Origin: Ignavibacteria bacterium
GTDB taxonomy: Bacteria > Bacteroidota > Ignavibacteria > Kapaibacteriales > UBA2268
Direction of reading: 5' to 3'
Assembly: GCA_037445895.1 (NCBI GenBank)
Contig: JBBIJO010000003.1
Span: forward strand, 14,109 to 78,108
Length of the DNA stretch: 64,000 bases
Within the stretch, counting starts at the first letter, position 1. Each line of letters begins with the position of its first letter. A program made the translations under genes and the position numbers. Positions 19,134-45,424 of the stretch are shown here, piece by piece. The notes under the pieces are model-generated. The model searched no databases. It was not told where the DNA came from and saw nothing but the letters and a program-made list of their open reading frames with translations.

Positions 19134-19161
19134 ATATTTCTCCTTGTTATTTAACTTCTAC

Positions 19162-22100
19162 TTAGAAATCAACAGTGATTGTGAAATTGTAGCTTCGAGT
19201 CCCGGGCATATTAAAATAGTCGAGGCCTTGTGCACTATACGCACCCATAAGGTTTGTTTCGGGGTCAACCCCTTTATATTTAGTGTTTAGCCAGAGATTG
19301 CGTCCAGTAAAGGTGAGAATCACATTCGAAAATGGAGTATATTCGACAATCGATTTAGGCAAAGTATAGGAAAGGCTCACCTCGCGTAGTCGAATCCAAC
19401 CAGCATCTTCGATAAAGTCTTCTGTGTTGTCGCCAACGAATCCATTCCCATTACCTAAGGATAACCAACCTTCATCTACTACTACTTTAATGTCGTTTCG
19501 AGCGTTTGATGTTACGAGATTGCCATTTTCATCTAAATGTCCTTTAACTCCCGAGAAGACTGTTGTATCGCCACGATTTTCTGTATCTTTATGCGTTCCA
19601 AAGAAATAAAGAGCACCACGAGTCCCATTCCACATTTTACCACCTTTCTTGATATCGATTAAGAAAGATAGGGTCAAACCTTTCCAGGAGATGGAATTTC
19701 GGAAACCAAGAAGCCAATCTGGATTTGGAGAACCTAATGATTTTTCATTTTTGGAATCAAGTATTGGAAAACCATATTCATCTGAATTTGGGTCGTCATT
19801 GATGACAACGTTGCCATTAGAGTCGCGGAGCCAGCCAAACCCAAAGATTGAACCGTATGGCTTACCTGCAACAATGCGAACCGAAGAGCCTTCGAATCCT
19901 CCGAGAAAGATGTTATCGATTCCTTCGTAAAGCTCATCAACCATATTCTTATTCGTCGAGAAGTTGAGATTTATATCCCATCGCCAGTCGGCTGTATTTA
20001 ATGGTGTAATATTTAAAACTGCTTCCCAACCTTTGTTCGATATTTGTCCTGCATTGAAAACAGCTGCGTAATATCCAGTGGAGCGTGCAATAGGGACACT
20101 AAAGATTTGGTCTTTACTCACAGAATTGTAGTATGTTAAATCCAATGAAAAGAGATTGTCGAGAAAAGCAACATTGAAGCCAATTTCCCACGACGTCGTC
20201 TTTTCGGGGCGAAGTTTATCGTTTCCAAGAACGTCACCTGTTACAAAGCCAACTTGTCCATTGAATGGGAAGGAAACTCCGTTTGTATAACCGTCGGCAT
20301 AGGCTGCTTGAATAAAAGGTGTCGAGATTGCATACAATGGCGCATCCTTACCTACAACGGCATAATTAAAGCGAAGTTTGCCAAAATTAAACCAGCTTCC
20401 TTCGAAGACATCTTTAAAGAGAGTTGTAAATACAACACTTATACTTCCTTGTCCATACCAGAATGAGTTATTGTCTTTCGGCAATGTAGTGGACATATCG
20501 TTGCGAATGCTTCCGTTGAAATACAACCATTCCTGGTAGTCCAAGGATAAGTCGCCGTAGAAACCTAATCTTCGAAGTTTACTTTGAGATTGGCGAACAA
20601 TTTGGCTCGTAGTATTAGACATATGGTAGAAATCTGGAACTATTAAGCCATCTCCCTGTGTGTATAGCGAACTGCCAACCGATTGGAATAAGTTATTCCC
20701 GAGGATTAGTTTTCCAACTAAATCATCGGTTAAGTCGTAATTAAACGTTAAAATTAAATCGGAGGTTAGGTCATTGCTGTATAGTTCGTGATTAAAGATT
20801 TGCCCGGCGGGGTTGGTGTTTGAATATATAGCAAATTCTTGACGTCGTTTATCGAAATAAATGTCTGCTCCGAGTCGATACATTAGGTCTATGTTTGGGT
20901 TGAAATAATAGTTGAGTTGAATATTCCCAATAAAACGGTCAACGTCATCAAAGAATGGGCTTCGGACTACCGTCCAAAATGGGTTATCGTAGAAACCACC
21001 TCCACGATAAGTTCTTTGGGTGCCATCGGCGAACATATAAGCATCGGAATGATTAATTGCATCAGTGCCGTAACCATTCGAATTGTCAAATGTAGGTGGT
21101 GTTCGAAGTAATCCCAACATAACTCCACTAGTGTTGCTACCTTGCTGGACGCGTCTTCCCCCCGAGTTAGTATACATAATATTACCGCTTGCTTTAAGTC
21201 GCGAGGAGATTCTTGCCTCTCCGTTGAAACGAATTGATTGACGTGAAAAGCTTGTTAGGGGAACAATTCCAGAAGATTTAGAGTTAGAAAGAGATAAAAA
21301 GAAAGAGCCAAATTCCGTTCCACCTGTAAAGGAAAGGTTCTGAGTATTTGTCATTCCGGTAACAAAGAAATTATGAAGATTGTCGTATGGCTCAATCTTT
21401 TTGAAGCGAGAGGGGTTATTTACGCTATCAACGAAAGATTTGCTTACAATGCTTCCATTTTTATTAAACTTATTTGGGGTTTGTGTATCCCAATACAGGG
21501 TGTCGATTGACGCGCCCCAACTGCGGCTTTGAGTACTTCCTGGTTGGACGAAATTCCCACCAGCACCTTGGGAGAATTTAGTTTGGGTCTCGGGCAGTTT
21601 ATTCACCTCGTCGATGGATGTAGTAGCAGAAAACGTTACATTAATTTTTTCAGTAGTTACTGCCTGTCCTTTTTTGGTGGTAATGACTATCGCACCGTTT
21701 GCGGCACGTATTCCATAAAGTGCAGTTGCAGCAGGTCCCTTCAATACGGTTACCGATTCAATATCGTCGGGATTTAGGTCGATTGCTCGGTTCGAATAAG
21801 CAACACCCCAAAGTAAGTTATTTGTTCCATTATCAGGATTACTGCTATACGACATTGAGTTGTCTATTAGGATGCCATCGACAACAAAGAGTGGTTGGTT
21901 ACCGCCGAGGAAAGAATTTTGTCCTCGAATTTGGATGTATGCCGAAGCACCTGGGACGCCGGTAGAGTTAACCACTCGGACGCCAGCAACTTTTCCAGTA
22001 ATGGAATTCACAATGTTTGTAGTTCGCGATTCAGAAATTAATTTTCCGCCCATTTCTTCGAGGGAATATCCTATCGATTTCTTTTCGCGTTCCAAACCAA

Positions 22101-22428
22101 TTGCAGTGACGACAACTTCTTCGGTGAGTAATTTATCTTCTTCGAGCGAAACATTGAAGAAATCTTTGCCTTCGATACTAACTTCTTTGGTTTTCATTCC
22201 AACTCGACGAAACACTAAAACCCGTGCACGGAGTGGGACTTTGATTGAAAAGCTTCCATCGCCTTTGGTAAAAGTTCCAATTGCTGTTCCTTTTACCATA
22301 ACTGTAACGCCGGAAAGTGCATTTCCGTTTTCGTCCGTTACCTTACCGCTGACAACCCTTTCCTGTGAAAGAGCCCCAACTGTTGTAACGAAAAATGCAG
22401 CAATAAGGTAAAAAATAAATGTTTTCAT
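19162..22428 (-). CDS. SusC/RagA-family TonB-dependent outer-membrane transporter.
   Basis: Signal peptide, carboxypeptidase-regulatory-like N-domain (VSGKVTDENGNALSGVTVMVKGT), plug (TAIGLERE), about 1090 aa, and C-terminal ...TITVDF. The start is placed at Met 22428 (MKTFIFYL), which is preceded by GGGAG. Confidence 0.85.
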   Translation of the reverse strand: MKTFIFYLIAAFFVTTVGALSQERVVSGKVTDENGNALSGVTVMVKGTAIGTFTKGDGSFSIKVPLRARVLVFRRVGMKTKEVSIEGKDFFNVSLEEDKLLTEEVVVTAIGLEREKKSIGYSLEEMGGKLISESRTTNIVNSITGKVAGVRVVNSTGVPGASAYIQIRGQNSFLGGNQPLFVVDGILIDNSMSYSSNPDNGTNNLLWGVAYSNRAIDLNPDDIESVTVLKGPAATALYGIRAANGAIVITTKKGQAVTTEKINVTFSATTSIDEVNKLPETQTKFSQGAGGNFVQPGSTQSRSWGASIDTLYWDTQTPNKFNKNGSIVSKSFVDSVNNPSRFKKIEPYDNLHNFFVTGMTNTQNLSFTGGTEFGSFFLSLSNSKSSGIVPLTSFSRQSIRFNGEARISSRLKASGNIMYTNSGGRRVQQGSNTSGVMLGLLRTPPTFDNSNGYGTDAINHSDAYMFADGTQRTYRGGGFYDNPFWTVVRSPFFDDVDRFIGNIQLNYYFNPNIDLMYRLGADIYFDKRRQEFAIYSNTNPAGQIFNHELYSNDLTSDLILTFNYDLTDDLVGKLILGNNLFQSVGSSLYTQGDGLIVPDFYHMSNTTSQIVRQSQSKLRRLGFYGDLSLDYQEWLYFNGSIRNDMSTTLPKDNNSFWYGQGSISVVFTTLFKDVFEGSWFNFGKLRFNYAVVGKDAPLYAISTPFIQAAYADGYTNGVSFPFNGQVGFVTGDVLGNDKLRPEKTTSWEIGFNVAFLDNLFSLDLTYYNSVSKDQIFSVPIARSTGYYAAVFNAGQISNKGWEAVLNITPLNTADWRWDINLNFSTNKNMVDELYEGIDNIFLGGFEGSSVRIVAGKPYGSIFGFGWLRDSNGNVVINDDPNSDEYGFPILDSKNEKSLGSPNPDWLLGFRNSISWKGLTLSFLIDIKKGGKMWNGTRGALYFFGTHKDTENRGDTTVFSGVKGHLDENGNLVTSNARNDIKVVVDEGWLSLGNGNGFVGDNTEDFIEDAGWIRLREVSLSYTLPKSIVEYTPFSNVILTFTGRNLWLNTKYKGVDPETNLMGAYSAQGLDYFNMPGTRSYNFTITVDF

Positions 22429-22737
22429 ACTCCCATTACCATTATTGAACAAAAATTATTAATTACGAAGGACCTATTGTTAACGCATCGATATTGTTTA
22501 GTCTGGGGCAGTTATCGTTGGCTTGTCGCGAATTTTAATGCTTAAAGAAAATAGTTTTTTCATAAACGACCCCCTTTTTTAAAAATGTAAAAAATGGTAT
22601 GAAATTTTATTGTAAAATAAGGCACCACTTCCTTTCTCACTTCTTTTATTCATTGACTTGTAAATTAAATCCATTATCAAAATAAGCAATTTTAATTTAA
22701 TGTGCAAATATATGCAAAGATTTTTTTATATTTTTTG

Positions 22738-33401: not shown

Positions 33402-36400
33402 ATGACTAAATTTAAATGGATAATTATTCAAGCACTTTTCTTTATACTTAGCTACTTTTCTTTTTCACAAAAAGTTGTTGTGAGCGAGTACTATAATATT
33501 ACGGGTATTCCAAATGGAGAATGGACTGAACTTTTAGTTGTGCAAGACAATATAGATATTGTTGGTTTTACACTGCGCGATAATTCTGGGTCAACAGGGG
33601 TGCCAGTTCAATGGACTGGCGGCATTCGATTCAAAAACCATCCACTTTGGAGGAATCTTCGTTCTGGAACAATTATTGTTATTAATCATCGCTATTCTGC
33701 TTCGCAACGAGTTGATGTTGATAAACGCGATGGTTACATTGAAATAGACGCAGAAAATGAGACTTACTTCGAAAAAAGGTGCTTTAGTTGTGTTGTTGGT
33801 ATCGATTGGAACCAGAAAGCTTTGAATATTGCACAAGGAAGCGATATCCTTGAAATTATTGATAATAATGATAACCACGTTCACGCATTAGCACATATGC
33901 CTAATGCTTCGGGAAGCTGGCTCAATTTGCCGCCTCCAAAGATTTCCTACAATGGAAAAATTCCACAGGGAGGCGTTAGTGTTCAAGTTTGCCCCGGAAG
34001 GAATATTACATCTTATAACAAAGGATTTGATGTATTAAACGAGGAGGTTGTGCAATCTTTGGATTATGTTACCAAAGGTAAACCAAATAATCGAAGTAGT
34101 GCCATTGATGTGAATCAATTGTTCTGGCGTAATCTTCGTGAACCAGAATGGAATTCACCTAATTTAAATGCACGCATATTCAGGGATAAGGTTTTACTAT
34201 TATGGAATTCTATAAATGACCCAAACCCAAACGACAGTGTCAATGGATATTTAATCATACGAATACCATCGGAAGAATTGAGCCAGATACAAACTCCAGT
34301 CGATGGTCGAATATATAACGTTGGCGATAAGCTTGGTTCCGCAACCGTGGTGGGAATTGTGAATTTTTCGCAAACAACAAGTTTTGTCGATAAGTTTGCC
34401 ATTCCTTGCGATACAAGCTATACTTATAGAATTTATGCTTTCCGGTATCGTGCAGATGATTTCGGAGAGGACTCGCGTGCTGTTTACGCTCGTGGACGTT
34501 CTTACAACGAACATGTTGTTGGAGAAACCAACGTTTTTAAACAATTACCTCCGACACCGATTTTAAGTATAAAGGAAAATAAAAATAGGTTCTGCAAAGG
34601 CGATAGTACAATTATTTTTATTTCGAATGGCGAATTGCTGCGGGATATGAAAATTGAATGGTTCGTTGACGACAAAGTTATTCCTAACGAAAATAATATA
34701 TTAATTAAAGCAAAAACCGGAGGAACATACAAAGTAAAAGTTACCGATTCTTTAAATTGTCCTTCTTGGTCGGAACGCATAAATATTGACGTTCTTGCAT
34801 TTCCACAAGTTAACCTTATGGTAAATTCTGTAGTAGTGAACAATGATACTTCGTTTGTCGTATGTAAAGACGATACTGTAATTCTTGTTGCACACGGTTG
34901 GTCCAATTACAAATGGTTCAAAAATGGTAAATTGGTCCAGGAAGGAAATCGCTCGACCTTTAATGTAGTAGAAACGGGAAGTTATCGTCTCGAGGCAACT
35001 AACAACCTTTGCACGACGAAAACCCCTGTGGTGACAGTTAAGTTTCTGGACCAGCGTGCTGAATTTAATTACGATACCTTAAATTTTTATGCTGCCAAGG
35101 ATGTGCCATACGTAGATACTACAGTTATTTATTATAATCTTTCAGCCGATACGATTTTTGTTAGTTCATATAGTTTTGAAGGAAGCGGTTTTGAGTTAAT
35201 CACCCCTAAAGTCCCATTTGTAGTTCTTCCTTACGGGGATGTTAACCTTGTTACAAGATTCCATCCCACAATGTCGGGAGTGTTTGTTTCGAAACTGATT
35301 TTGAGAAAGGAATGTGGTGTTTCCGATACTTTATTTCTAAGTGGTGTAAAAAAGTTTGGCGATTTAGGCAGTTCTACCGATGTTTTGGATTTTGGGATAA
35401 TTCCACTGTGCTATGACTATGGAATAGATACAACTTTGAGAATTTACAATCGTAGCTTGGAACTTGTTGAACTCCGAAATTTTGAGATTTATGCCCCGTT
35501 TGTAGTTTTAAGTCCTTCGTTCCCAACTTCTATTTTTCCACAAGATAGCCTCGATATAACGATTCGTTTCGCTGTTAACCAAGAGGGTAGATTCCAAGTT
35601 CCATTAAATATTGTTTATCGAATTAACAATATTTTCGACACTTTAAAATTACTGGTAAAAGGAGATGTAGATTATCCAAAATATGAAATTAGAAAGGATT
35701 TCAACGAACCATTGGTTTTTGGGGAATGTGTAAGTTCGATGGATACTTCTTTTACGATAGTTAATAATTCCAAGTTTCGATTGGAATATGTTTTCGATAA
35801 TCAGGAGAATACTGTTCAATTGTCTTCAAAAAGTGTAGTTCTTGAACCGTATAGTATTGCGAGTATTCCGGTTACCATACGTCCAATCAAGACAGGGATT
35901 GCAGTTTCTAAACTTTTTTGCTACGTATCTCCTTGTGGAATCAGAGATTCTGTTGAATTTCTTGTCGATAAAAAAGGAGTTCTAATTTCTTTTCCCGAAA
36001 TGACAATAGACTTTGGGGATATTTTTGTTTGCAACATCGATTCAATACGTGCTCGAAAAGTTTCGGTTTCTATTGACGGAGATACTTTGGGGTTAGTTCG
36101 AATACGTTCGATACGAGTAGAGGGGAGTTTTTCCTCGAATACTTCTGCTGGAGCAAAATTGAAAAATGGCGAAGAAATTGAAGTTAGTTTTACTCCCGAT
36201 TCTTCTGGCTATTACGAAGGGGAAATTACTTTTCTTTTGGAACCCTGTCTGGATGAATATAAGTTTGAACTTAAAGGAAGATATGTTAAAGGTAATTATA
36301 AATTAAGTTCTAAAATTCTTGATTTTGATTTTGTGGAAATTGGCTTGTTCGAAACTAAGAAGGTGGTTGTCGAGAATACTTCCAACCAAATAATTTATAT

Positions 36401-37358
36401 TGTTGGAATTTCCGATGTTCTTTCGCCGTTTGAACTGGTTGCATCCAAGACTTTCCCCATTATGCTAAAACCCAACGAAAGCATAAATTTAATTTTCAAA
36501 TTTATACCTATTCAAGTAGGTGATTTTATGCAAACAATTTATATTGATTTTGGCTCGCCTTGTTTTGTTATGGATTCCATTGAATTATTCGGGAAAGGAA
36601 TTGAACCACAGCCCAACATTATTACTCTTGCACTCCCATCTATAGAATCAAAACCTATGAAAATTTTACAGATTCCAATATATCTCGAAGTATCGGAAGA
36701 AAAAAGAATTCGGCTATTTCGATTGGAATTCGATATTAACTTCAACTTCTCGCTCTTCGATTTTTATAAAATCGATTTAAATTATAATTTTGATAATGTC
36801 GATACGATTAGGACGTTAGGAAAAGTTTCTTTTCGGTTAGATTTCGATACAAACTCGTTTGTAAGAAGTGGAGTGATTGGATATTTAGTCGGAAGGGTAA
36901 TGTTAGGTGATGAAAAAAGTACACCACTTACCTTCGCCAATGTTGAAGCTTTGGGGAAAGGCGAAATTCGTGTTGAACAACGGAATGGAAAAATTACTTT
37001 GGACAGTATCTGTGCTTTGGATTTAAGGTTAATTTCAACCGAAACTTTGCCAAACGTCACTTTCAAAAAATTTGAAAATGATGGAATATCCTTCGAGGTG
37101 AGCTCTTCCAAAGGTTGGAATAAATTGCACATCAAGGTTATAAACTTGTTGGGTCAAATTGTTTATTCAGATACGAGAAACATTAGGTCTGCAAGTATCG
37201 ACGAACTTACAATACCAGATTCGGAACTGCCCGACGGATTTTATATTTTTGTTTTCGAGTTCATTAGCGAAAATAATTACTATTTACCACAGACTTTGAA
37301 GGCTTTAATAGCAAAAGGAACCTTTCTTGTCTTGTCTTCTACTACAACAACACATTAA
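33402..37358 (+). CDS. Large (1318 aa) cell-surface protein: N-terminal lamin-tail-domain, multiple Ig-like/beta-sandwich modules, T9SS C-terminal sorting domain.
   Basis: Signal peptide. LTD-like segment VVVSEYYNITGIPNGEWTELLVVQDNIDIVGFTLRDNSG...GTIIVI. C-terminal KVINLLGQIVYSD...LPDGFYIFVFEF resembles the T9SS CTD motif. Confidence 0.65.
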   Translation: MTKFKWIIIQALFFILSYFSFSQKVVVSEYYNITGIPNGEWTELLVVQDNIDIVGFTLRDNSGSTGVPVQWTGGIRFKNHPLWRNLRSGTIIVINHRYSASQRVDVDKRDGYIEIDAENETYFEKRCFSCVVGIDWNQKALNIAQGSDILEIIDNNDNHVHALAHMPNASGSWLNLPPPKISYNGKIPQGGVSVQVCPGRNITSYNKGFDVLNEEVVQSLDYVTKGKPNNRSSAIDVNQLFWRNLREPEWNSPNLNARIFRDKVLLLWNSINDPNPNDSVNGYLIIRIPSEELSQIQTPVDGRIYNVGDKLGSATVVGIVNFSQTTSFVDKFAIPCDTSYTYRIYAFRYRADDFGEDSRAVYARGRSYNEHVVGETNVFKQLPPTPILSIKENKNRFCKGDSTIIFISNGELLRDMKIEWFVDDKVIPNENNILIKAKTGGTYKVKVTDSLNCPSWSERINIDVLAFPQVNLMVNSVVVNNDTSFVVCKDDTVILVAHGWSNYKWFKNGKLVQEGNRSTFNVVETGSYRLEATNNLCTTKTPVVTVKFLDQRAEFNYDTLNFYAAKDVPYVDTTVIYYNLSADTIFVSSYSFEGSGFELITPKVPFVVLPYGDVNLVTRFHPTMSGVFVSKLILRKECGVSDTLFLSGVKKFGDLGSSTDVLDFGIIPLCYDYGIDTTLRIYNRSLELVELRNFEIYAPFVVLSPSFPTSIFPQDSLDITIRFAVNQEGRFQVPLNIVYRINNIFDTLKLLVKGDVDYPKYEIRKDFNEPLVFGECVSSMDTSFTIVNNSKFRLEYVFDNQENTVQLSSKSVVLEPYSIASIPVTIRPIKTGIAVSKLFCYVSPCGIRDSVEFLVDKKGVLISFPEMTIDFGDIFVCNIDSIRARKVSVSIDGDTLGLVRIRSIRVEGSFSSNTSAGAKLKNGEEIEVSFTPDSSGYYEGEITFLLEPCLDEYKFELKGRYVKGNYKLSSKILDFDFVEIGLFETKKVVVENTSNQIIYIVGISDVLSPFELVASKTFPIMLKPNESINLIFKFIPIQVGDFMQTIYIDFGSPCFVMDSIELFGKGIEPQPNIITLALPSIESKPMKILQIPIYLEVSEEKRIRLFRLEFDINFNFSLFDFYKIDLNYNFDNVDTIRTLGKVSFRLDFDTNSFVRSGVIGYLVGRVMLGDEKSTPLTFANVEALGKGEIRVEQRNGKITLDSICALDLRLISTETLPNVTFKKFENDGISFEVSSSKGWNKLHIKVINLLGQIVYSDTRNIRSASIDELTIPDSELPDGFYIFVFEFISENNYYLPQTLKALIAKGTFLVLSSTTTTH

Positions 37359-37530
37359 TTACAAAAATTAAATTTAGTTGCCAATTTAGTTTATATAATT
37401 TTTTAGTTATATTACTTTTTGGTAATTTAGTGTTTGAATTTTGGTGGTAGTGCGATATGATACAGATTGATAGGAATATTTATTTACAAAGTTTATCGAT
37501 AGATTTTTATCCTTTGTGGAGAGCTAGCAT

Positions 37531-39108
37531 ATGAGAAAGATATTTATTATTATTGCTATTTTTTCTTTTCTTGCTTTTATAGTTTTAAACACAGTTTTTC
37601 GTACTTGGGATGTTCAATCTCCTTTGGAAAAATTGAAAGAACAATACGAAAATAAGGAAGACACGAAAGCCGTCGATCACTCGCAATTTTCAATATTGAA
37701 GCAAGTATTCGAACACCCTTCGGAAGTAACGAAAGCTTGCGTCAGTTGCCATAACCTTACATCTCATCAAGTAATGAACTCGAGCCACTGGAATTGGGAG
37801 CGCGAAGAATATGTAAAAGGAAAGGGTGTAGTTTATTTAGGGAAAAAGAATGCCATTAATAATTTTTGCATTTCTTCGGAAGGTAACGAACCAAGTTGTG
37901 CGAAGTGCCACATTGGGTTTGGTATGGATAGCAAAGGCAAAGTGTTTACCGATTCGGTAAACATTGACTGTTTGGTTTGCCACGACAATACAGAAACTTA
38001 TAGTAAAGCACCCGAAAAAGGGGGAGCGCCTTCGGAAACGGTAAACCTTAGTTTTGTTGCACAAAATGTTGGGAGACCCCGAAGATCTAATTGTGGAATT
38101 TGTCATTTTTATGGTGGTGGTGGAAATAATGTTAAGCATGGTGATCTTGAAAAGGCAATGTTTGAACCGACCAAAGAGATAGATGTTCATATGGGTGTTG
38201 ACGGTGCTAATATGCAGTGTGTTGATTGCCACGTAACTAAACAACATAATATTTCGGGAAGGCTTTATTCTCTTTCTTCGATGAACCGCAACAGGGTATT
38301 TTGCGAACAATGTCACTTGTCGGAACCACACACCGACGAAATACTTAATGAACATACTCTTAAAGTGTCGTGCCAAACTTGTCATATTCCTATTTATGCA
38401 AAAGTCAACGCGACGAAAACTTATTGGGACTGGTCAACCGCTGGGAAACTTCGAAATGGACAACCATACGTTGAGGAAGATAGTGTAGGAAATGACAAAT
38501 ATATGTCGATAAAGGGAACTTTTGTTTGGGGAAAAAATCTTAGACCCGATTATATTTGGTTTAATGGAAGTGCAACTCATTATTTAAAAGGGGATATTAT
38601 AGAGGATACGACAAAAGTTGTTGTATTAAATAAGTTGTTTGGTTCGTATTCCGATTGGGAGTCGAAAATTTACCCTGTAAAAACTTTTCGTGCTAAGCAA
38701 CCATTCGACCCGATTAATAAAATCCTTATTAGCCCAAAACTTTATGCTGAACGGAAAGGCGAAGGTGGATTCTGGAAGGATTTCGATTGGATAAAGTCTT
38801 CCGAAATAGGTATGAAATTAGCAAATTTGCCTTTTAGCGGGAAGGTGTCGTTTATTGAAACAGAAATGTACTGGCCTGTCAACCATATGGTGGCACCGAA
38901 GGGACAAAGTTTACAATGTAAGAGTTGCCATACACGGAATGGATCTCGTTTGGCTGGTTTGACCGATTTTTACTTGCCGGGGCGCGATAGCTCTGCGACT
39001 GTAGAATTTATAGGCAAATGGCTTGTTATTTTGGTTTTTATAGGTGTTGTTTTTCATGGAAGTTTAAGAATTTATAATAATTTTCGCAATAAACAGGAGA
39101 TGAATTGA
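37531..39108 (+). CDS. Octaheme c-type cytochrome, membrane-anchored (tetrathionate-reductase OTR or HAO-like family).
   Basis: Eight CxxCH motifs (CVSCH, CAKCH, CLVCH, CGICH, CVDCH, CEQCH, CQTCH, CKSCH). N-terminal signal peptide and C-terminal TM helix (WLVILVFIGVVF). RBS GGAGAG. Confidence 0.8.
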   Translation: MRKIFIIIAIFSFLAFIVLNTVFRTWDVQSPLEKLKEQYENKEDTKAVDHSQFSILKQVFEHPSEVTKACVSCHNLTSHQVMNSSHWNWEREEYVKGKGVVYLGKKNAINNFCISSEGNEPSCAKCHIGFGMDSKGKVFTDSVNIDCLVCHDNTETYSKAPEKGGAPSETVNLSFVAQNVGRPRRSNCGICHFYGGGGNNVKHGDLEKAMFEPTKEIDVHMGVDGANMQCVDCHVTKQHNISGRLYSLSSMNRNRVFCEQCHLSEPHTDEILNEHTLKVSCQTCHIPIYAKVNATKTYWDWSTAGKLRNGQPYVEEDSVGNDKYMSIKGTFVWGKNLRPDYIWFNGSATHYLKGDIIEDTTKVVVLNKLFGSYSDWESKIYPVKTFRAKQPFDPINKILISPKLYAERKGEGGFWKDFDWIKSSEIGMKLANLPFSGKVSFIETEMYWPVNHMVAPKGQSLQCKSCHTRNGSRLAGLTDFYLPGRDSSATVEFIGKWLVILVFIGVVFHGSLRIYNNFRNKQEMN

Positions 39109-39800
39109 TGGCACATAGCAAGATTTACATTTATAAAGGGTTCGAAAGGTTTTGGCACTGGATGCAAGCCCTTTTGATTTTTTTTCTTGCCTTCACAGGC
39201 TTCGAAATTCATGGTGTTTATCATTTTTTTGGATTTCGCGAAGCTGTCCGCTACCATAACGTTGCAGCTTATATGTTCATTGCATTGATAATTTTTGCAA
39301 TTTTTTGGCACCTTACTACTGGGGAATGGAAGAATTATATTCCAACGCTTAGAAACATAAAAGCACAATTGGATTATTATTTGTTTGGAATTTTCCGAAA
39401 TGCACCGCATCCAACAAAAAAATCTGTTTTGAGCAAGCTTAATCCTTTACAAAAAATTACTTACTTTGCTTTGAAAATATTAGTTATACCTTTAAGTGTA
39501 TCGTCGGGTTTGTTGTATATGTTTTTTCGTTACCCAACCCGCTATGGTATCGAAGAGATAAGTATCCAAAATTTGAAGTATATCGCTGTTTTTCATACTC
39601 TTGCTGCATTTTTTTTGGTTGCTTTTATTATTGCTCATTTATATCTAATTACAACGGGCAAAACAATCACTTCGAACCTTAAAGCAATGCTCACAGGTTA
39701 CGAAGAATTCGAAGACGATAAAGAGCAGAATGTTATAGAATCGGAAATAGAAAATCCAATCGAAAAGGTTACTTCACAAAAAGAAAGGGTAAAATTATGA
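39105..39800 (+). CDS. Membrane di-heme cytochrome b (Ni/Fe-hydrogenase b-type / cytochrome b561-like subunit).
   Basis: 231 aa with 4 TM helices and conserved His (FERFWHWMQALLIFFLAFTGFEIHG; HTLAAFFLVAFIIAHLYL). ATGA overlap with the octaheme gene. Confidence 0.7.
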   Translation: MMAHSKIYIYKGFERFWHWMQALLIFFLAFTGFEIHGVYHFFGFREAVRYHNVAAYMFIALIIFAIFWHLTTGEWKNYIPTLRNIKAQLDYYLFGIFRNAPHPTKKSVLSKLNPLQKITYFALKILVIPLSVSSGLLYMFFRYPTRYGIEEISIQNLKYIAVFHTLAAFFLVAFIIAHLYLITTGKTITSNLKAMLTGYEEFEDDKEQNVIESEIENPIEKVTSQKERVKL

Positions 39801-40315
39801 ACAAGATTAATTATATGAATCCGTATTTAGCTGGATTTCTTCTTGGATTACTTCTTATTGTTACAGTTTATATTACAGGCCGTGGTTTGGGAGCCAGTGG
39901 AGCATTCAAGAGCTATGTTGTGGCAAGCGCGGAAACCATAGCGCCGTTACATTCCGAAAATTCAAAATTTTATCGGGAGTACCGCAATGAACATAATAGT
40001 AGTAACCCTTTAATGAATTGGCTAGTTTTCGAGGTTACGGGGGTGTTAGTAGGTGCATTCATTTCTGGTTTAATTTCAAATAGGCTAACACTAACTTTGG
40101 AAAAAGGTCCTAATTTGACCAATAGGTTGCGAGTTGTGGCAGCCTTGATTGGTGGCGTTCTTTGGGGTGTGGGATCCCAGTTTGGTCGCGGGTGTACGAG
40201 TGGTGCTGCTTTAAGCGGTATGGCAGTTATGTCAACTGGAGGAATCATTACGATGTTTTCAATTTTTGCAGGAGCATATCTTTTTGCTTTTTTCTTCAGA
40301 AAACTGTGGATTTAA
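39797..40315 (+). CDS. YeeE/YedE-family (sulfur-transport, DUF395) membrane protein, half-size.
   Basis: Family signature GRGLGASGAF ... GSQFGRGCTSGAALSGM in a 172-aa product. ATGA overlap with the cytochrome b gene. Confidence 0.7.
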   Translation: MNKINYMNPYLAGFLLGLLLIVTVYITGRGLGASGAFKSYVVASAETIAPLHSENSKFYREYRNEHNSSNPLMNWLVFEVTGVLVGAFISGLISNRLTLTLEKGPNLTNRLRVVAALIGGVLWGVGSQFGRGCTSGAALSGMAVMSTGGIITMFSIFAGAYLFAFFFRKLWI

Positions 40316-40332
40316 TTTAAGGAGGTTAAGAT

Positions 40333-41523
40333 ATGGGACCTTTGGTGCCAGACGTTGTAAGTAATAACCTGAACTTGATTTTAGCTTTTTTCATTGGAAT
40401 TGCCTTTGGTGCAATTCTTGAACAGGCTGGGTTTTCATCGACAAGGAAACTGGTGGGTTTATTCTATGGATACGACTTCACTGTTCTTAGGGTCTTTTTT
40501 ACTGCTGGTGTTGTTGCAATGATAGGAGTTATGGCGCTTTCTCATTTTGGATTTATCGATATGAATTTAGTTTATGTAAACCCTACTTATCTTTGGTCGG
40601 CAATTATCGGGGGACTCATTATGGGTTTGGGGTTTGTGATTGGTGGTTTCTGTCCCGGCACAAGTATTTGTGCTGTTGCTATCGGAAAGGTTGATGCTAT
40701 TATATTTGTTATAGGAGTATTTTTAGGAGTGTTGATTTTTGCGGAGGGATATCCAGCTTTCGAAGGGTTGTATAAATCCGAATTTTGGGGAAATCCCAAA
40801 ATATTTGAAACATTGAGTATTTCCCCAAATTTATTCGCTTTAGCGATGGTGTGCTTTGCTATGCTTGCATTTTGGTTTGTTGGATTAGTCGAAAGAAAAG
40901 TTAATAAAGAACCTTTGAAGCAATTTAAATTAAGACCATATTATATAGTTCTTTCTATCGTAGGATTTATTCTTTTAGTTTCGGCTTTTACTCTCAAGGA
41001 TAGGAAGTCTGCTATTCTACAAGTTATTCAAGACGAACAGTATGTCAAATCGAACAAATTGGATGTAATGAACGTCGATGAATTTGCTTTCCGGTTGATG
41101 GACAATGAAGAAGAACTCGAAGTTGTCGATTTTAGGGAACCGAATGATGCAAAAACATTGCCTTTACCAAAATCCAAACTTTATACTATCGATAATTTAT
41201 TCGAGAAGGAACCAAGCAAACATTTGCAAGTTCGAGGGAAAAAATATGTGATTGTTGCTAATGATGAGTTTACGGAACGGAAAATCGGGGTGATTGTAAA
41301 TGAATTAGGGTTGAATAGAATGATGATTCTCGAAGGTGGGCTAAATTATTTTAAAGAACAAATAATCAATTTCAAACCGATTCAAAATCCTAAAACTTTG
41401 CTCGAAAGCTATACTAATCGGTTCCGGGAGAAAGCTAGCAAAATTATTCCTGTTCTTATAAATCGAAATAGAACGCTTCAACCAATAGAAAAAAAACAAC
41501 AGAGAGTTCTTGGGGGTTGTTAA
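40333..41523 (+). CDS. YeeE/YedE-family membrane domain fused to a C-terminal rhodanese-homology domain.
   Basis: N-terminal half carries GFVIGGFCPGTSICAVAIG (YeeE motif). The C-terminal 150 aa fit a rhodanese fold (VIVANDEFTERKIGVIVNELG) but have no Cys at the active-site-loop position. Confidence 0.65.
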   Translation: MGPLVPDVVSNNLNLILAFFIGIAFGAILEQAGFSSTRKLVGLFYGYDFTVLRVFFTAGVVAMIGVMALSHFGFIDMNLVYVNPTYLWSAIIGGLIMGLGFVIGGFCPGTSICAVAIGKVDAIIFVIGVFLGVLIFAEGYPAFEGLYKSEFWGNPKIFETLSISPNLFALAMVCFAMLAFWFVGLVERKVNKEPLKQFKLRPYYIVLSIVGFILLVSAFTLKDRKSAILQVIQDEQYVKSNKLDVMNVDEFAFRLMDNEEELEVVDFREPNDAKTLPLPKSKLYTIDNLFEKEPSKHLQVRGKKYVIVANDEFTERKIGVIVNELGLNRMMILEGGLNYFKEQIINFKPIQNPKTLLESYTNRFREKASKIIPVLINRNRTLQPIEKKQQRVLGGC

Positions 41524-41596: not shown

Positions 41597-41673
41597 GGCG
41601 AGCTTAGCTCAGTTGGAAGAGCATCAGATTGTGGCTCTGAGGGTCACGGGTTCGAGCCCCGTAGCTCGCCCCA
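41597..41673 (+). tRNA. tRNA-His (anticodon GTG) with genomically encoded G-1 and 3' CCA.
   Basis: Cloverleaf by eye: G-1, acceptor GCGAGCT/AGCTCGC, D-arm GCTC-AGTTGGAA-GAGC, anticodon stem TCAGA/TCTGA with loop TTGTGGC, T-arm ACGGG-TTCGAGC-CCCGT, discriminator C, CCA. Confidence 0.85.
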
Positions 41674-41746
41674 ATTGATTAGTCTATAATACCTTTTAAT
41701 TCCCTTTTTGTTATTTTTGTATTTGTTTAATTTTTTTGGTTATACA

Positions 41747-43786
41747 ATGAAACAAACATTGGCATTATCATTGTTAATTGCTTTACTATTTAATTTTTGT
41801 TCTACAAACAACGAAAGTGGCAAGATGAGATTGGTCGACAAACAAACAATACAAAAAACAATTAAAGTTTTAGTTGAAAAATATGGGGAACGAGACCGGG
41901 AAAGAATCGAGCGAGGTGTGAACCAAGTAGCAAATTTTTGGTATGAAGTCGATGGCTCGAAAAAAGATTTTTTTGAATTTTGCTCTAAAAATTTTGTTCC
42001 AAAATCCGACACGTTAGATGAAGTATTCACTCGGCTTTCAAATTATTTCGAGGTATTAGGCGGATATTTTAACAAAATAACGCTCGAATTGAACCGCCGA
42101 CTCCATCTCGATATGGGCGAAATTATGCCAATCGATTTAATGTTTGCTGGCTACGACCCATCAGCAAATTTAACCACCGATTTTTTCAGAAATAAAATTG
42201 CTTTCTATGTTATTTTGAACTTTCCAAATTATTCGCTCGACGAAAAAAATACATTAGGACGTAAATGGTCCCGGAAAGAATGGGCTTTTGCTCGTCTGGG
42301 GGATATATTTACCTCCCGCGTTCCTGCGGAGTTTCTTCAAAAAATTTCGGAAGCTACTACTGCAGCCGATTCCTACATCTCAGAATACAATATCTATGTT
42401 GGAAATCTTATCGATGATAAGGGAAACACTTATTTCCCGAAGGATAAAAAACTAATTTCGCACTGGAACCTAAGGGATGAGATTAAGTCTTTGTATGGCA
42501 AGGACAATGGTTTGTTCAAACAACAAATGATATATCGAGTGATGAAACATATAATTAACCAGACTATTCCGCAGCAAGTTATAAATAATTCGGAATATCA
42601 GTGGAACCCATTCAAAAATATATTGTTTCAAAATGGAAAAGAATTGCCTTTCAAGACCGAACCCAATACACGATACCAACACTTATTGAATAACTTCCTT
42701 GTTCGCAAGGCTGTCGATAAATTTTATCCTGAATATCCTACCTATATCAAACGAAAATTCGAATTGGAGTTTGAAATCTCCGAAAAAGACATTGAAAAAC
42801 TTTTTATCGATTTGATTTCATCGCCGACAGTCAGTAAAGTTGCAGAATTAATTAAAAAGCGATTGGGACGCAATCTTGAGCCATTCGATTTGTGGTATGA
42901 CGGATTCAAAGCTCGCAGTGCAATCCCCGAAGATGAACTTTCATTAACAACTAAAACCAAATACCCCAACCGCGAAGCGTTTGCAAAAGACTTACCAACT
43001 ATTTTAATGAAACTTGGCTTCACATCTGAGCTTGCTAATTTTATTGCCTCGAACGTTGAAGTTGACCCTTCACGTGGCGCTGGACATGCTTGGGGGGCGC
43101 AAATGCGTTCCGAAAAGGCACATCTTCGCACACGAATTGGCAAAGATGGAATGGATTACAAAGGATATAACATCGCAATTCACGAATTCGGACACAACGT
43201 TGAGCAAACCTTAACTTTGCAAAAAGTCGATTATTATATGCTTAATGGAGTGCCAAACACTGCATTCACAGAGGCAATGGCGTTTATTTTCCAAAAACGA
43301 GACCTCGAACTTCTTGGGATAAAAAATCCCAATGCAAATGCAACTCATTTAATGGCATTGGATAATTTCTGGGCTGCTTACGAAATTATGGGTGTGGCGC
43401 TTGTCGATATTTACGTATGGAATTGGATGTATCAAAATCCAAATGCTACCGCCGAAGAATTGAAAAATGCAACTATCAAAATAGCGAAGGAAGTTTGGAA
43501 TAAATATTATGCCCCTGTTTTTGGTGTGAAAGACGAGCCTATTTTAGCGATTTACTCACATATGATTGACTATCCTCTTTATCTTTCAGCATATCCATTG
43601 GGGCATATCATTGAATTTCAGATTGAAAGAAGCATCGAAGGGAAGAACCTTGCCGATGAACTTTATAGAATTTTGACTCAAGGTAGAATTACTCCACAAA
43701 TTTGGGTGGAAAATGCGGTTGGAAGCGAGATTTCAACGAAACCAATGATTGAGTCCGCCGAGGAGGCGCTCAAATTTGTTAATTAG
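41747..43786 (+). CDS. Putative lipoprotein zinc metallopeptidase (HEFGH gluzincin-like motif).
   Basis: Start at MKQTLALSLLIALLFNFCS (signal/lipobox). HExxH occurs as IAIHEFGHNVEQ with a downstream Glu (TEAMAF). Family not resolved. Confidence 0.45.
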   Translation: MKQTLALSLLIALLFNFCSTNNESGKMRLVDKQTIQKTIKVLVEKYGERDRERIERGVNQVANFWYEVDGSKKDFFEFCSKNFVPKSDTLDEVFTRLSNYFEVLGGYFNKITLELNRRLHLDMGEIMPIDLMFAGYDPSANLTTDFFRNKIAFYVILNFPNYSLDEKNTLGRKWSRKEWAFARLGDIFTSRVPAEFLQKISEATTAADSYISEYNIYVGNLIDDKGNTYFPKDKKLISHWNLRDEIKSLYGKDNGLFKQQMIYRVMKHIINQTIPQQVINNSEYQWNPFKNILFQNGKELPFKTEPNTRYQHLLNNFLVRKAVDKFYPEYPTYIKRKFELEFEISEKDIEKLFIDLISSPTVSKVAELIKKRLGRNLEPFDLWYDGFKARSAIPEDELSLTTKTKYPNREAFAKDLPTILMKLGFTSELANFIASNVEVDPSRGAGHAWGAQMRSEKAHLRTRIGKDGMDYKGYNIAIHEFGHNVEQTLTLQKVDYYMLNGVPNTAFTEAMAFIFQKRDLELLGIKNPNANATHLMALDNFWAAYEIMGVALVDIYVWNWMYQNPNATAEELKNATIKIAKEVWNKYYAPVFGVKDEPILAIYSHMIDYPLYLSAYPLGHIIEFQIERSIEGKNLADELYRILTQGRITPQIWVENAVGSEISTKPMIESAEEALKFVN

Positions 43787-44086: not shown

Positions 44087-45424
44087 ATGAGATTGTTGTT
44101 TAAAGTAATATTTTTATTTTACTCCGTTAATTTATTATTTGGTTTCGATTCGGATACTTTGAGTAGGGTACCACGGAAACCGATAGTAAGATTTATTAGA
44201 ATTTTCGGGGAAAAGTCCGAACAAAATCCTCCAATACTGATTCTTAGAACCTCAAATTCCGGAATTAACCCAGAAATAGGCGATGCCCATCTTGTTGTTG
44301 AATTCGATGTTGATTCGAGAGTTCCTCCGAATTTGTATGCTCGGTTTTTTCATTGTTCATACGATTGGAATGAAGATGAGAACATTTTTCTCAACGATAT
44401 AACTGCACATCGCACAAGTAACATTTTTTGGGAGTCTGCCCCTATTAATTCTAAGTATTATTCATTTCGCGGGCGAATAACTATTCCCAATGAGCAGGTT
44501 AAATTCAGTTTTGCCGGAAATTGGAAAATTAAGCTTTTCGATTATGAGAATCCCGATTTGCCGTTAGCCGAAGCCAGATTCTTTATTGTTTCGCCACTTG
44601 TTGATGGTAAAATGACATTTTATTCCGATTTTTATAAACCCGAAAAGAATGTTACAGCTTCGGCTTTCGACGTAGAAGTGTCTGTTTTTAGTTCCAAGAC
44701 TTCAAATATCATAGAAAACAATCTTCATAGTGTGATACTTTACAGAAACCATCGTTGGAGCGAACCTTTTGTTATCTCTCAGTTTACTTTCAATGCTTTT
44801 AACAACAACCTTTTTCGGTATAAGTTCGAAACACAGATATATGGTTTTGTTTCGATGGGAAAAGTCTTTAGAATTGATGGTATTCCAGCAGAAAACGGTT
44901 ATCGGGTATTAAATCTTTCCGATTTAGCTCTTTATCCTTCGATATCAAGTGTTGTAAGAATGCCACTTTCCGATATTCGCCGCCGCGGAAGCTACATCGA
45001 ATCGCACGACGATGGTGCAATGATTACAACCTTTATAACTCCTAATTATGATGATTACGTTTATATGGAATTTATTCTCGACCCCGAAGGATGGAAAACC
45101 GATAACGATGTGTTTGTTGTAGGTTCTTTTAACAATTGGGAACCCACTCGCGATTGGCAAATGTATTACGATGATAAAAACAGGTTGTATAGGCTTCGTC
45201 AATGGGTTCGGCGCGCTCGCCATAATTATCTTTATGCAACTGCAAGAGTCAATTCCGACAATAGTACAATCGAGAAAATTGCCTTCGATGAATTCGAAGG
45301 AAATACTGTTACAAGTGGGCATACCTTTATAGCTTTCGTGTATTACCGAAATACAGGTTACGGAGGTTACGACGAAATAGTAGGTGTTGTTGCTGGCTCT
45401 TATTTCTCGTCCACTTTTCGTTAA
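44087..45424 (+). CDS. Hypothetical secreted protein with C-terminal CBM48/AMPK-beta-like glycogen-binding motif.
   Basis: Signal peptide. The C-terminal segment VFVVGSFNNWEP...YRLR matches the GSFNNW signature of CBM48/E-set domains. No catalytic motifs were seen. Confidence 0.45.
   Translation: MRLLFKVIFLFYSVNLLFGFDSDTLSRVPRKPIVRFIRIFGEKSEQNPPILILRTSNSGINPEIGDAHLVVEFDVDSRVPPNLYARFFHCSYDWNEDENIFLNDITAHRTSNIFWESAPINSKYYSFRGRITIPNEQVKFSFAGNWKIKLFDYENPDLPLAEARFFIVSPLVDGKMTFYSDFYKPEKNVTASAFDVEVSVFSSKTSNIIENNLHSVILYRNHRWSEPFVISQFTFNAFNNNLFRYKFETQIYGFVSMGKVFRIDGIPAENGYRVLNLSDLALYPSISSVVRMPLSDIRRRGSYIESHDDGAMITTFITPNYDDYVYMEFILDPEGWKTDNDVFVVGSFNNWEPTRDWQMYYDDKNRLYRLRQWVRRARHNYLYATARVNSDNSTIEKIAFDEFEGNTVTSGHTFIAFVYYRNTGYGGYDEIVGVVAGSYFSSTFR

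Follow-up and report, generated by a model that had tools for sequence, protein, structure and literature searches.

A predicted periplasmic rhodanese ending in Gly-Gly-Cys points to an undescribed cysteine-arm sulfur carrier working with OTR-family octaheme cytochromes in Ignavibacteria and relatives

We analyzed a four-gene cluster on the plus strand (positions 37531-41523) of a 64,000-nucleotide stretch of Ignavibacteria bacterium DNA (contig JBBIJO010000003.1, assembly GCA_037445895.1; hereafter the window). The cluster encodes an octaheme cytochrome c of the OTR family, a membrane cytochrome b and the two halves of a split YeeE/YedE sulfur channel, the second of which is fused to a rhodanese domain with a C-terminal Gly-Gly-Cys (GGC) tail. 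This tail points to an undescribed cysteine-arm sulfur carrier that works with the OTR family. Our preferred interpretation, which we hold with moderate confidence, is that the operon combines a menaquinol-driven periplasmic reductase of S-S bonds with a SoxY-like cysteine arm and an importer of sulfane sulfur of the PmpAB/YedE1E2 type. Confidence in the anatomy of the cluster is much higher than in this overall mechanism. The cluster had previously been singled out in a sequence-only reading of the window, made without database searches.

The fourth gene (40333..41523, 396 aa) encodes YeeE half B followed by a rhodanese-fold domain (41062..41367, residues ~244-345), a helix with a basic flexible linker (41368..41511, residues 346-393) and the terminal G394, G395 and C396 directly before the stop codon (41512..41523), which form the candidate sulfur-carrying arm. 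Because searches of Pfam, NCBIfam and PDB sequences gave no significant match, the rhodanese fold was established by structure prediction. PF00581 did not match the window protein itself at E ≤ 0.01 in the Pfam scan, while it is recorded for close homologues; an NCBIfam scan of residues 225-396 gave no match, and the best PDB sequence match of the domain was Sud (1QXN) with an insignificant E-value of 0.16. In the AlphaFold2 (AF2) model, the predicted local distance difference test (pLDDT) reaches 80-90 over residues 230-380, and Foldseek matched the domain to single-domain rhodaneses with probability 1.00 and TMt values of 0.6-0.7. The linker contains a helix at residues 356-378 followed by disorder, with pLDDT < 50 from residue 386. 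The rhodanese fold assumed in the sequence-only reading is thus borne out by structure prediction.

The active-site loop reads VIVA309NDEFTERK (pattern VxVA309-N-D311-E312), in which Ala309 replaces the loop cysteine and A309, D311 and E312 are conserved. The earlier description of the domain as a rhodanese without a catalytic cysteine is correct for this loop, but the protein still carries an invariant cysteine in its C-terminal GGC. The fusion ends in ...RVLGGC, and none of the last three residues (G394, G395 and C396) varies among 52 close homologues with 58-62% identity. With the loop cysteine being alanine, Cys396 would be the sole candidate carrier residue. In 51 of 52 related loci, drawn from several phyla, the orthologue ends in GGC plus zero to two residues, and this ending is retained even where the 30 residues before it show no sequence relationship between lineages. 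A search of residues 225-396 against 1.84 billion cluster representatives returned 75 clusters, nearly all of them the fusion or fragments. The databases name these proteins only 'rhodanese-like' or 'YeeE/YedE family', and none of the NCBIfam models reaches its cut-off for the window protein or the related GGC rhodaneses. In one otherwise complete four-gene locus (L037, 9762-10500), the half B orthologue stops at about 246 aa without rhodanese and GGC, which probably reflects a frameshift or pseudogene. We also considered a cleavable tail exposing a Gly-Gly thiocarboxylate, as in QbsE-like carriers. This candidate was rejected because the domain does not have a beta-grasp fold and the ATP-dependent activation needed for thiocarboxylate chemistry is not available in the periplasm.

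The genomic context was surveyed by tblastn and analysis of open reading frames (ORFs) in one genome per species, and the best 80 of more than 590 OTR relatives found were kept. Seventy of the OTR-cytochrome b loci were informative for the GGC rhodanese. An exported rhodanese ending in GGC was found in 64 of these 70 loci, and the YeeE pair in about three quarters of them; it is the exported GGC rhodanese, and not the YeeE pair, that is the steadiest partner of OTR and cytochrome b. Among 2183 ORFs of at least 80 aa in the fetched loci, 97 end in GGC plus zero to two residues, nearly all inside these clusters; by a rough estimate, fewer than one would be expected by chance.

The complete arrangement of OTR, cytochrome b, YeeE and YeeE-rhodanese fusion recurs in 46 of the 80 species-level loci, across several phyla. 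Carriers include Ignavibacteria, the Bacteroidota isolates Sunxiuqinia rutila and Saccharicrinis sp., and metagenome-assembled genomes (MAGs) labelled Chthonomonadia, Pirellulaceae, LCP-89 and Delongbacteria. Flanking genes vary from lineage to lineage, and a MarR-type regulator is often located 5' of the cluster in relatives, though not in the window. These features are consistent with a cluster that moves as a unit. Its recurrence in numerous genomes despite unrelated flanks supports a link to sulfur chemistry.

Variants of this arrangement differ mainly in the form of the rhodanese. In six loci, a lipoprotein tandem rhodanese, which has the catalytic cysteine and ends in GGC, is inserted between cytochrome b and the YeeE pair; some of these loci also carry an Alginate_exp-type outer-membrane protein at this place. 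The loci of this group have, in addition, an extra signal-anchored GGC rhodanese after the fusion. The Alginate_exp-family gene lies between cytochrome b and the tandem rhodanese in L066, L068 (5651-6907), L071 and L075, and at 7049-8296 in L065, which suggests that the substrate of these Bacteroidales-type clusters enters by an outer-membrane route. Thirteen loci have no YeeE genes and instead encode a lipoprotein rhodanese of about 170 aa directly after cytochrome b. These lipoproteins keep the catalytic motif YCKKGxR, and their acidic tails end in VGGC or SSGGC. The tails also differ in charge: those of the lipoproteins in the class C loci (L058-L084; L058 9861-10364, L059 9186-9710) are acidic or neutral (..HDSGGEVGGC, ..SAPASSGGC), and those of the YeeE-fused and signal-anchored forms are strongly basic (..KKQKRVVGGC, ..KKKKKKRMPEGGC).

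The rhodanese domain and its tail are predicted to be periplasmic, based on the number of transmembrane (TM) helices, the positive-inside rule and the export of homologues. StYeeE has its N-terminus outside, returns to the outside after H1-H6 and runs inward with H7 (PMC7449682). The half B fusion shows six hydrophobic peaks, made up of the H1-H6 unit and two additional helices at residues 165-191 (H7-like) and 202-220. An N-out YeeE N-half with six TM helices places the rhodanese end on the outside. In 54 family members, loops predicted to face the cytoplasm contain a mean of 6.0 Lys and Arg residues compared to 1.1 for those on the other side. The stand-alone homologues P0180, P0182 and P0188 (~205 aa) are signal-anchored and consist of a Cys-less rhodanese and a K-rich tail ending in ...GGC, and other homologues are lipoproteins with a lipobox cysteine that likewise end in GGC. 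The membrane part of the AF2 model (pLDDT < 50) was excluded from the topology argument. The earlier proposal that the rhodanese stands where the cytoplasmic sulfur carrier TusA would be is at odds with this predicted periplasmic location and with the invariant C-terminal cysteine. A layout consisting of a YeeE half, one linker TM helix and a cytoplasmic rhodanese as TusA replacement was rejected in view of the six helices, the positive-inside rule and the exported homologues.

The first gene (37531..39108) encodes a protein of 525 aa that matches TIGR04315 with 574.8 bits (cut-off 375), residues 48-481 covering profile positions 1-440. This assigns the octaheme cytochrome to OTR and not to HAO, ONR or MccA. 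Every Cys and His of its eight CxxCH motifs is invariant across 77 homologues, and it shares 47% identity with the Shewanella OTR (PDB 1SP3) over the whole catalytic domain (E 5e-123). Lys105 in a GKKN motif is invariant in the alignment and aligns with residue 56 of the 1SP3 chain, which we take, following Mowat et al. 2004, to be the Lys axial ligand of the active-site haem 2, contributed by a residue that is not part of a CxxCH motif. The nearby Cys113 is likewise invariant in the 77 homologues, and this NNFC cysteine is also present in the Shewanella OTR. An N-terminal signal or anchor precedes the periplasmic catalytic domain, and the protein ends with a TM tail anchor (39010..39075, residues ~494-515, IGKWLVILVFIGVVFHGSLRIY) that contains His509 and is followed by basic residues. 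A TM tail with an H(G/A)xxR motif is present in 80 of 80 related loci; His509 is conserved in 96% of the 77 homologues and is followed by a conserved Arg. A membrane-anchored octaheme cytochrome with eight canonical CxxCH motifs, as described in the sequence-only reading, is therefore confirmed.

Transcripts of otr increased 36-fold upon addition of tetrathionate to sediment microcosms in another lineage (PMC8528874). Because of this induction, tetrathionate is supported as a substrate of the OTR family in nature, and it is the sole substrate supported for the family in a natural setting. The window OTR may thus act as a tetrathionate reductase. OTRs of the Shewanella type, represented by L092 (Shewanella algae) and L093 (Malonomonas rubra), are encoded beside a monohaem cytochrome c and a DUF3373 protein, or alone. 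We searched for a cytochrome b or GGC rhodanese partner beside the OTRs of these two loci and found neither, which indicates that the OTR family has at least two electron-input architectures.

Cytochrome b is encoded directly 3' of OTR in 78 of 78 loci with sufficient sequence. In the window, the gene occupies 39108..39800 (alternative TTG start at 39105), and its product matches PF01292 with 92 bits (cut-off 30.1). Six His residues are invariant in 77 sequences, enough to ligate two haems b, which agrees with the earlier annotation as a di-heme b-type membrane cytochrome. Among NCBIfam models, PhsC (NF011582) comes nearest, with 104.7 bits below the cut-off of 204; the protein is related to PhsC without being PhsC. 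It is a membrane cytochrome b of the HyaC/FdnI/PhsC type and the presumed quinol-oxidising partner of the tail-anchored OTR. Six invariant His are two more than two haems b need; together with His509 of OTR, the surplus residues could serve an additional haem or a His-mediated subunit contact.

The YeeE halves were assigned according to published descriptions of the family (PMC11582611, PMC7449682). Half A (39797..40315, 172 aa) covers PF04143 profile positions 177-310, the C-half of the profile (81 bits, cut-off 27), corresponds to StYeeE H8-H13 and is PmpA/YedE1-like. Half B with its two further TM helices (40333..40992) covers profile positions 4-161, the N-half (56.6 bits, cut-off 27); its residues 1-138 correspond to StYeeE H1-H6 and are PmpB-like. 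Cys133, located in a GRGCTSG motif, is the only invariant Cys of half A in 53 sequences and was assigned to StYeeE Cys293 on the periplasmic side. When the profile of half B was aligned to 6LEO residues 5-93, Cys107, the only invariant Cys of its YeeE part (53 sequences), fell on StYeeE Cys91, and Gly33 took the position of C22. The same order, with the C-half-like gene first, is found for PmpA-PmpB among the split family members, which likely form a heterodimer (PMC11582611, PMC10812762). For the split pair YedE1E2, import of zero-valent sulfur and a need for one Cys per half were reported, while full-length YedE3 did not stimulate zero-valent sulfur uptake (PMC10812762). By analogy, the window pair may import zero-valent sulfur as well.

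The pair had originally been read as a thiosulfate importer. This is not sustained by our results: the TsuA models NF052577/NF041049 score 46.2 and 19.4 bits (cut-off 400) and 24.5 bits (cut-off 645), and each half has one invariant Cys, as in YedE1E2. Whereas TsuA, the full-length form to which thiosulfate import belongs, is a single chain with three cysteines, the window pair is encoded by two genes and has Gly33 at the C22 position, and no TusA-like YeeD/TsuB gene was found in the window cluster or the related loci. We therefore consider it unlikely that OTR and cytochrome b reduce tetrathionate to thiosulfate that is then imported by the split YeeE, with a cytoplasmic Cys-less rhodanese replacing TusA/YeeD. 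The OTR assignment and the PF04143 matches would fit such a pathway, as would TsuA being the best sub-threshold NCBIfam match of half A and YeeD acting at the cytoplasmic face of YeeE (PMC11073785). However, the six TM helices, the positive-inside rule and the exported homologues put the rhodanese domain outside, and its terminal Cys is invariant. With Gly at the C22 position and one Cys per half, the pair resembles the sulfane-importing YedE1E2; the TsuA scores of 46 and 19 bits lie far under 400, and the 13 OTR-cytochrome b loci without a YeeE pair keep the GGC rhodanese.

The same channel and carrier were found with a second type of reductase. In L087-L089 (1088-8243), a PhsA/PsrA-like molybdoenzyme, whose best model is PhsA (474 bits, under the equivalog cut-off), is followed by an FeS subunit, an NrfD anchor, half A, half B, two GGC rhodaneses and TatC. 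Half B is unfused in this cluster (201 aa) and ends after the H7-like helix. Both rhodaneses, one of which is the stand-alone P0182, are signal-anchored, lack the loop cysteine and end in EGGC. Because the module also follows this molybdoenzyme, the channel and carrier are an accessory of at least two unrelated kinds of quinol-dependent periplasmic reductases of sulfur compounds, and polysulfide or sulfane sulfur is an equally good substrate candidate. A CcdA/DsbD-like channel supplying reductant for haem attachment was rejected as the main explanation, since the Psr/Phs-like molybdoenzyme that the module also follows is not a cytochrome c.

This second partnership also bears on the direction of electron flow. 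An oxidative, Sox/TsdA-like direction, in which the octaheme enzyme would couple thiosulfate or sulfide to the arm, in the manner of SoxXA and SoxY, or form tetrathionate, with electrons passing via cytochrome b to quinone and the bound sulfur imported for oxidation in the cytoplasm, appears quite unlikely to us. The arm does resemble that of SoxY, the classical carrier with a C-terminal cysteine arm. Divergent SoxY/SoxZ genes lie directly downstream of otr in lucinid symbionts, which are sulfur oxidisers (PMC11237559), and the YeeE-like SoxT imports sulfur for oxidation (PMC11582611). In contrast, no sHdr, Dsr or Sox genes were found in the window or the inspected related loci, and the module is shared with a Psr/Phs-type reductase. 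Menaquinone has a potential of about -70 mV. The tetrathionate/thiosulfate couple lies far above this value, at +198 mV (PMC8528874), so that oxidative quinone reduction would be uphill in the mostly anaerobic organisms of the FCB group.

Another explanation starts from the in vitro activities of Shewanella OTR. OTR and cytochrome b would then be a nitrite or hydroxylamine reductase serving ammonification or detoxification, and YeeE and rhodanese an unrelated, co-transcribed unit of sulfur assimilation. The reduction of nitrite and hydroxylamine by Shewanella OTR in vitro is cited in several genome papers, yet we regard this explanation as very unlikely given the overlapping stop and start codons, the synteny over phyla despite unrelated flanks, the exported GGC rhodanese in 64 of 70 informative loci and the sharing of the module with a Psr/Phs-like enzyme. 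No nitrogen-cycle genes were found near the cluster in the window or in the inspected related loci. HAO-type clustering of the octaheme protein combined with separately transcribed YeeE genes would have spoken against the module as first proposed; we found an OTR-family cytochrome, coupled genes and recurrence of the arrangement. Finally, a selenium or tellurium module that reduces selenite or selenotrisulfide in the periplasm, with a YedE-like Se importer and a Cys arm carrying Se, is hardly credible: both halves match YedE/FdhT selenium-transporter models below threshold about as strongly as TsuA, and related rhodaneses weakly match selenoprotein-linked rhodanese models, but these scores are far under the cut-offs (e.g. 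32 vs 350), no selD, selA or YedF genes occur in any inspected locus, and the OTR and Psr/Phs-like partners are sulfur-compound reductases by family.

According to the preferred reading of a menaquinol-driven S-S reductase with cysteine arm and sulfane-sulfur importer, cytochrome b would oxidise menaquinol and pass the electrons to OTR, which is held there by its C-terminal tail anchor, and the S-S bond would be reduced at the active site with the Lys-ligated haem 2. The two added TM helices of half B would place the dead rhodanese and its flexible GGC tail in the periplasm, and half A would supply the other half of the split YeeE/YedE channel. The Cys396 thiolate could attack tetrathionate to give Cys-S-S-SO3-, or polysulfide/S0 to give a Cys-persulfide. 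The arm may then present its bound sulfur to OTR, as Sud does to polysulfide reductase and SoxY to the Sox enzymes. A partnership of carrier and reductase is supported by the exported GGC rhodanese in 64 of 70 informative loci, 13 of which have the lipoprotein form and no YeeE pair, by the module following the PhsA/PsrA-like molybdoenzyme, and by the divergent SoxY/SoxZ beside otr in lucinid symbionts. The arm may also hand sulfane sulfur to Cys133 at the outer channel mouth, from where it would pass via Cys107 to the cytoplasm; this relay is proposed because the split YedE1E2 imports zero-valent sulfur with one Cys per half (PMC10812762). More tentatively, and with considerable doubt, we propose that membrane-bound OTRs and some Psr/Phs-type reductases act on protein-bound sulfur and not on free anions. 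The substrate would in that case be a persulfide or thiosulfonate on the GGC arm of the exported rhodanese. If true, this would mirror the SoxXA-SoxY logic in the reductive direction; the arm of the fusion would also load a cysteine-relay channel, and one tethered thiol would couple respiration to the import of sulfane sulfur.

Several observations weigh against this mechanism. The topology of the fusion is a prediction, and AF2 modelled its TM part with low confidence. It is not obvious that an anion-binding site would attract the basic tail of the fusions. Five informative loci (L081, L082, L083, L085 and L086; L083 is labelled Melioribacter roseus) encode OTR and cytochrome b with no GGC protein nearby, and they also have no YeeE pair. 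OTRs of the Shewanella type have neither a cytochrome b nor a GGC rhodanese partner, and because they work without the latter, the arm is not essential to OTR-family chemistry. In addition, the physiological substrate of OTR is debated, as Shewanella OTR also reduces nitrite and hydroxylamine in vitro (PMC11237559, PMC7509429).

The layout of the cluster supports its reading as one unit. Four genuine plus-strand genes that are translationally coupled, as stated in the sequence-only reading, are borne out by the ORFs, the overlapping stop and start codons and a short spacer with AGGAGG, although the junctions differ in part from that account. The ATGA overlap given for 39105 is in fact TTGATG: the OTR stop codon TGA occupies 39106-39108, and cytochrome b likely starts at ATG 39108, with a 1-nt overlap and AGGAG 8 nt 5', or at TTG 39105. 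The junction between cytochrome b and half A is a genuine ATGA overlap at 39797-39800, as described. The spacer before half B at 40333, given as 18 nt, measures 17 nt and contains AGGAGG. We found no terminator-like hairpin on the plus strand within the cluster in a terminator scan, and promoter-like matches are not more frequent than in shuffled sequence. From these sequence features, co-transcription of the four genes is the natural reading. A palindrome that could serve as an operator, AAAGTTTATCGATAGATTTT, lies at 37488-37507, about 25 nt 5' of the OTR start codon.

Rfam and terminator scans of the cluster gave nothing apart from a tRNA, the tRNA-His (GTG) gene at 41598-41673, 74 nt 3' of the cluster. 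It is followed by an ORF of 692 aa (41708-43786), whose N-terminus is lipoprotein-like if ATG 41748 is used and for which scans of Pfam and NCBIfam gave no match at E ≤ 0.01. A homologue of the type IX secretion plug at 44087-45424 scores 96.2 bits on NF052315, barely below the cut-off of 100. This homologue, an Ig-repeat protein of 1318 aa (33402-37358) and a SusC/SusD pair (17781-22452) together place the source in the FCB group. Other neighbours in the window are a TonB-dependent receptor, Rho, CTP synthase and further housekeeping genes, and no further sulfur genes were found in the window outside the cluster. The GC content is even over the region. The nearest homologues come from Ignavibacteriales MAGs with 62-68% identity, so an uncultured member of this group is the probable source.

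The operon type had been regarded as undescribed, which holds for one part of it. A pair of Otr and cytochrome b561 has already been reported in the Ignavibacteriae MAG Ch128a (PMC7509429), while we found no description of the YeeE and GGC-rhodanese part in the open-access literature. That search likewise gave no account of a GGC tail on exported rhodaneses, of a GGC rhodanese fused to a YeeE half, or of the near-constant link of GGC rhodaneses to tail-anchored OTR-cytochrome b pairs. For sulfur disproportionators, published models show periplasmic sulfurtransferases that feed YeeE proteins (PMC12142623).

What OTR-family cytochromes do in vivo has been debated since 2004, and the substrates proposed are tetrathionate, nitrite and hydroxylamine. 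The near-constant operon partnership with exported rhodaneses and sulfur channels provides gene-context evidence for a role in sulfur metabolism. This evidence applies to a widespread membrane-bound sub-type of OTR in Ignavibacteria, Bacteroidota and relatives, which are frequently found in sediments, aquifers and bioreactors. By its C-terminal GGC tail, the rhodanese defines a candidate class of periplasmic sulfur carriers. The fusion of the tail to a channel half illustrates in concrete terms how a YeeE-type cysteine relay could receive sulfane sulfur from the periplasm, a step that current models of SoxT and YedE1E2 only postulate. Cultured carriers such as Sunxiuqinia rutila, Saccharicrinis sp., Marinifilum breve and Labilibaculum would allow direct testing.

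Parts of the cluster resemble known systems to different degrees. The Otr and cytochrome b561 genes of MAG Ch128a correspond to the two-gene core of the window, come from the same phylum and were read as a quinol-linked tetrathionate/nitrite reductase; that account covers the two genes, and the downstream YeeE halves, the rhodanese and its GGC tail are not mentioned (PMC7509429). PmpAB/YedE1E2 of Serratia and Cupriavidus share with the window pair the adjacent half-size genes, the C-half-like gene first and, as likened by description, one conserved Cys in each half at the StYeeE Cys293 and Cys91 positions; import of sulfane sulfur has been demonstrated for these known pairs (PMC11582611, PMC10812762). 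However, their halves have about 130-140 aa, four TM helices and no added domains, and they are encoded beside PDO or ArsR-type genes. The window halves have 172 aa and 396 aa and lie within a respiratory operon, and half B differs from PmpB by two additional TM helices and a rhodanese-GGC module of about 175 aa that is predicted to be periplasmic. TsuA/YeeE-TsuB/YeeD (6LEO, 8J4C) belongs to the same PF04143 fold family and has the equivalents of both conserved cysteines, Cys91 and Cys293. In contrast to its single 9-TM chain with three Cys (C22, C91 and C293) and a cytoplasmic TusA-like partner, the channel of the window is split, has Gly in place of Cys22, has no TusA-like gene and carries its accessory domain on what is predicted to be the opposite side of the membrane.

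The Shewanella OTR (1SP3, TIGR04315) shares with the window enzyme the eight CxxCH motifs, the position of the Lys ligand, the NNFC Cys and 47% identity. Enzymes of this type have about 460 aa, are soluble without a TM tail and adjoin a monohaem cytochrome c and a DUF3373 protein, whereas the window enzyme is anchored by a C-terminal TM helix containing a conserved His and belongs to a group always followed by a PF01292 cytochrome b. Sud of Wolinella succinogenes (1QXN) likewise has the rhodanese fold, is periplasmic and serves alongside a quinol-dependent sulfur reductase; it loads sulfur on its rhodanese loop Cys, while in the window protein the loop residue is Ala and the terminal Cys is the sole candidate. 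SoxY, which reportedly has a GGCGG motif (Sauve et al. 2007), shares with the GGC rhodanese the export, predicted in our case, and a cysteine in Gly-Gly-Cys context at the far C-terminus of a flexible peptide. SoxY has its own fold, SoxZ as a partner and the enzymes SoxXA, SoxB and SoxCD, whereas the window protein has the rhodanese fold and a reductase as its partner, with no SoxZ-like gene found in the cluster by Pfam and NCBIfam scans. The GGC rhodanese is an analogue of SoxY and not a member of the SoxY family.

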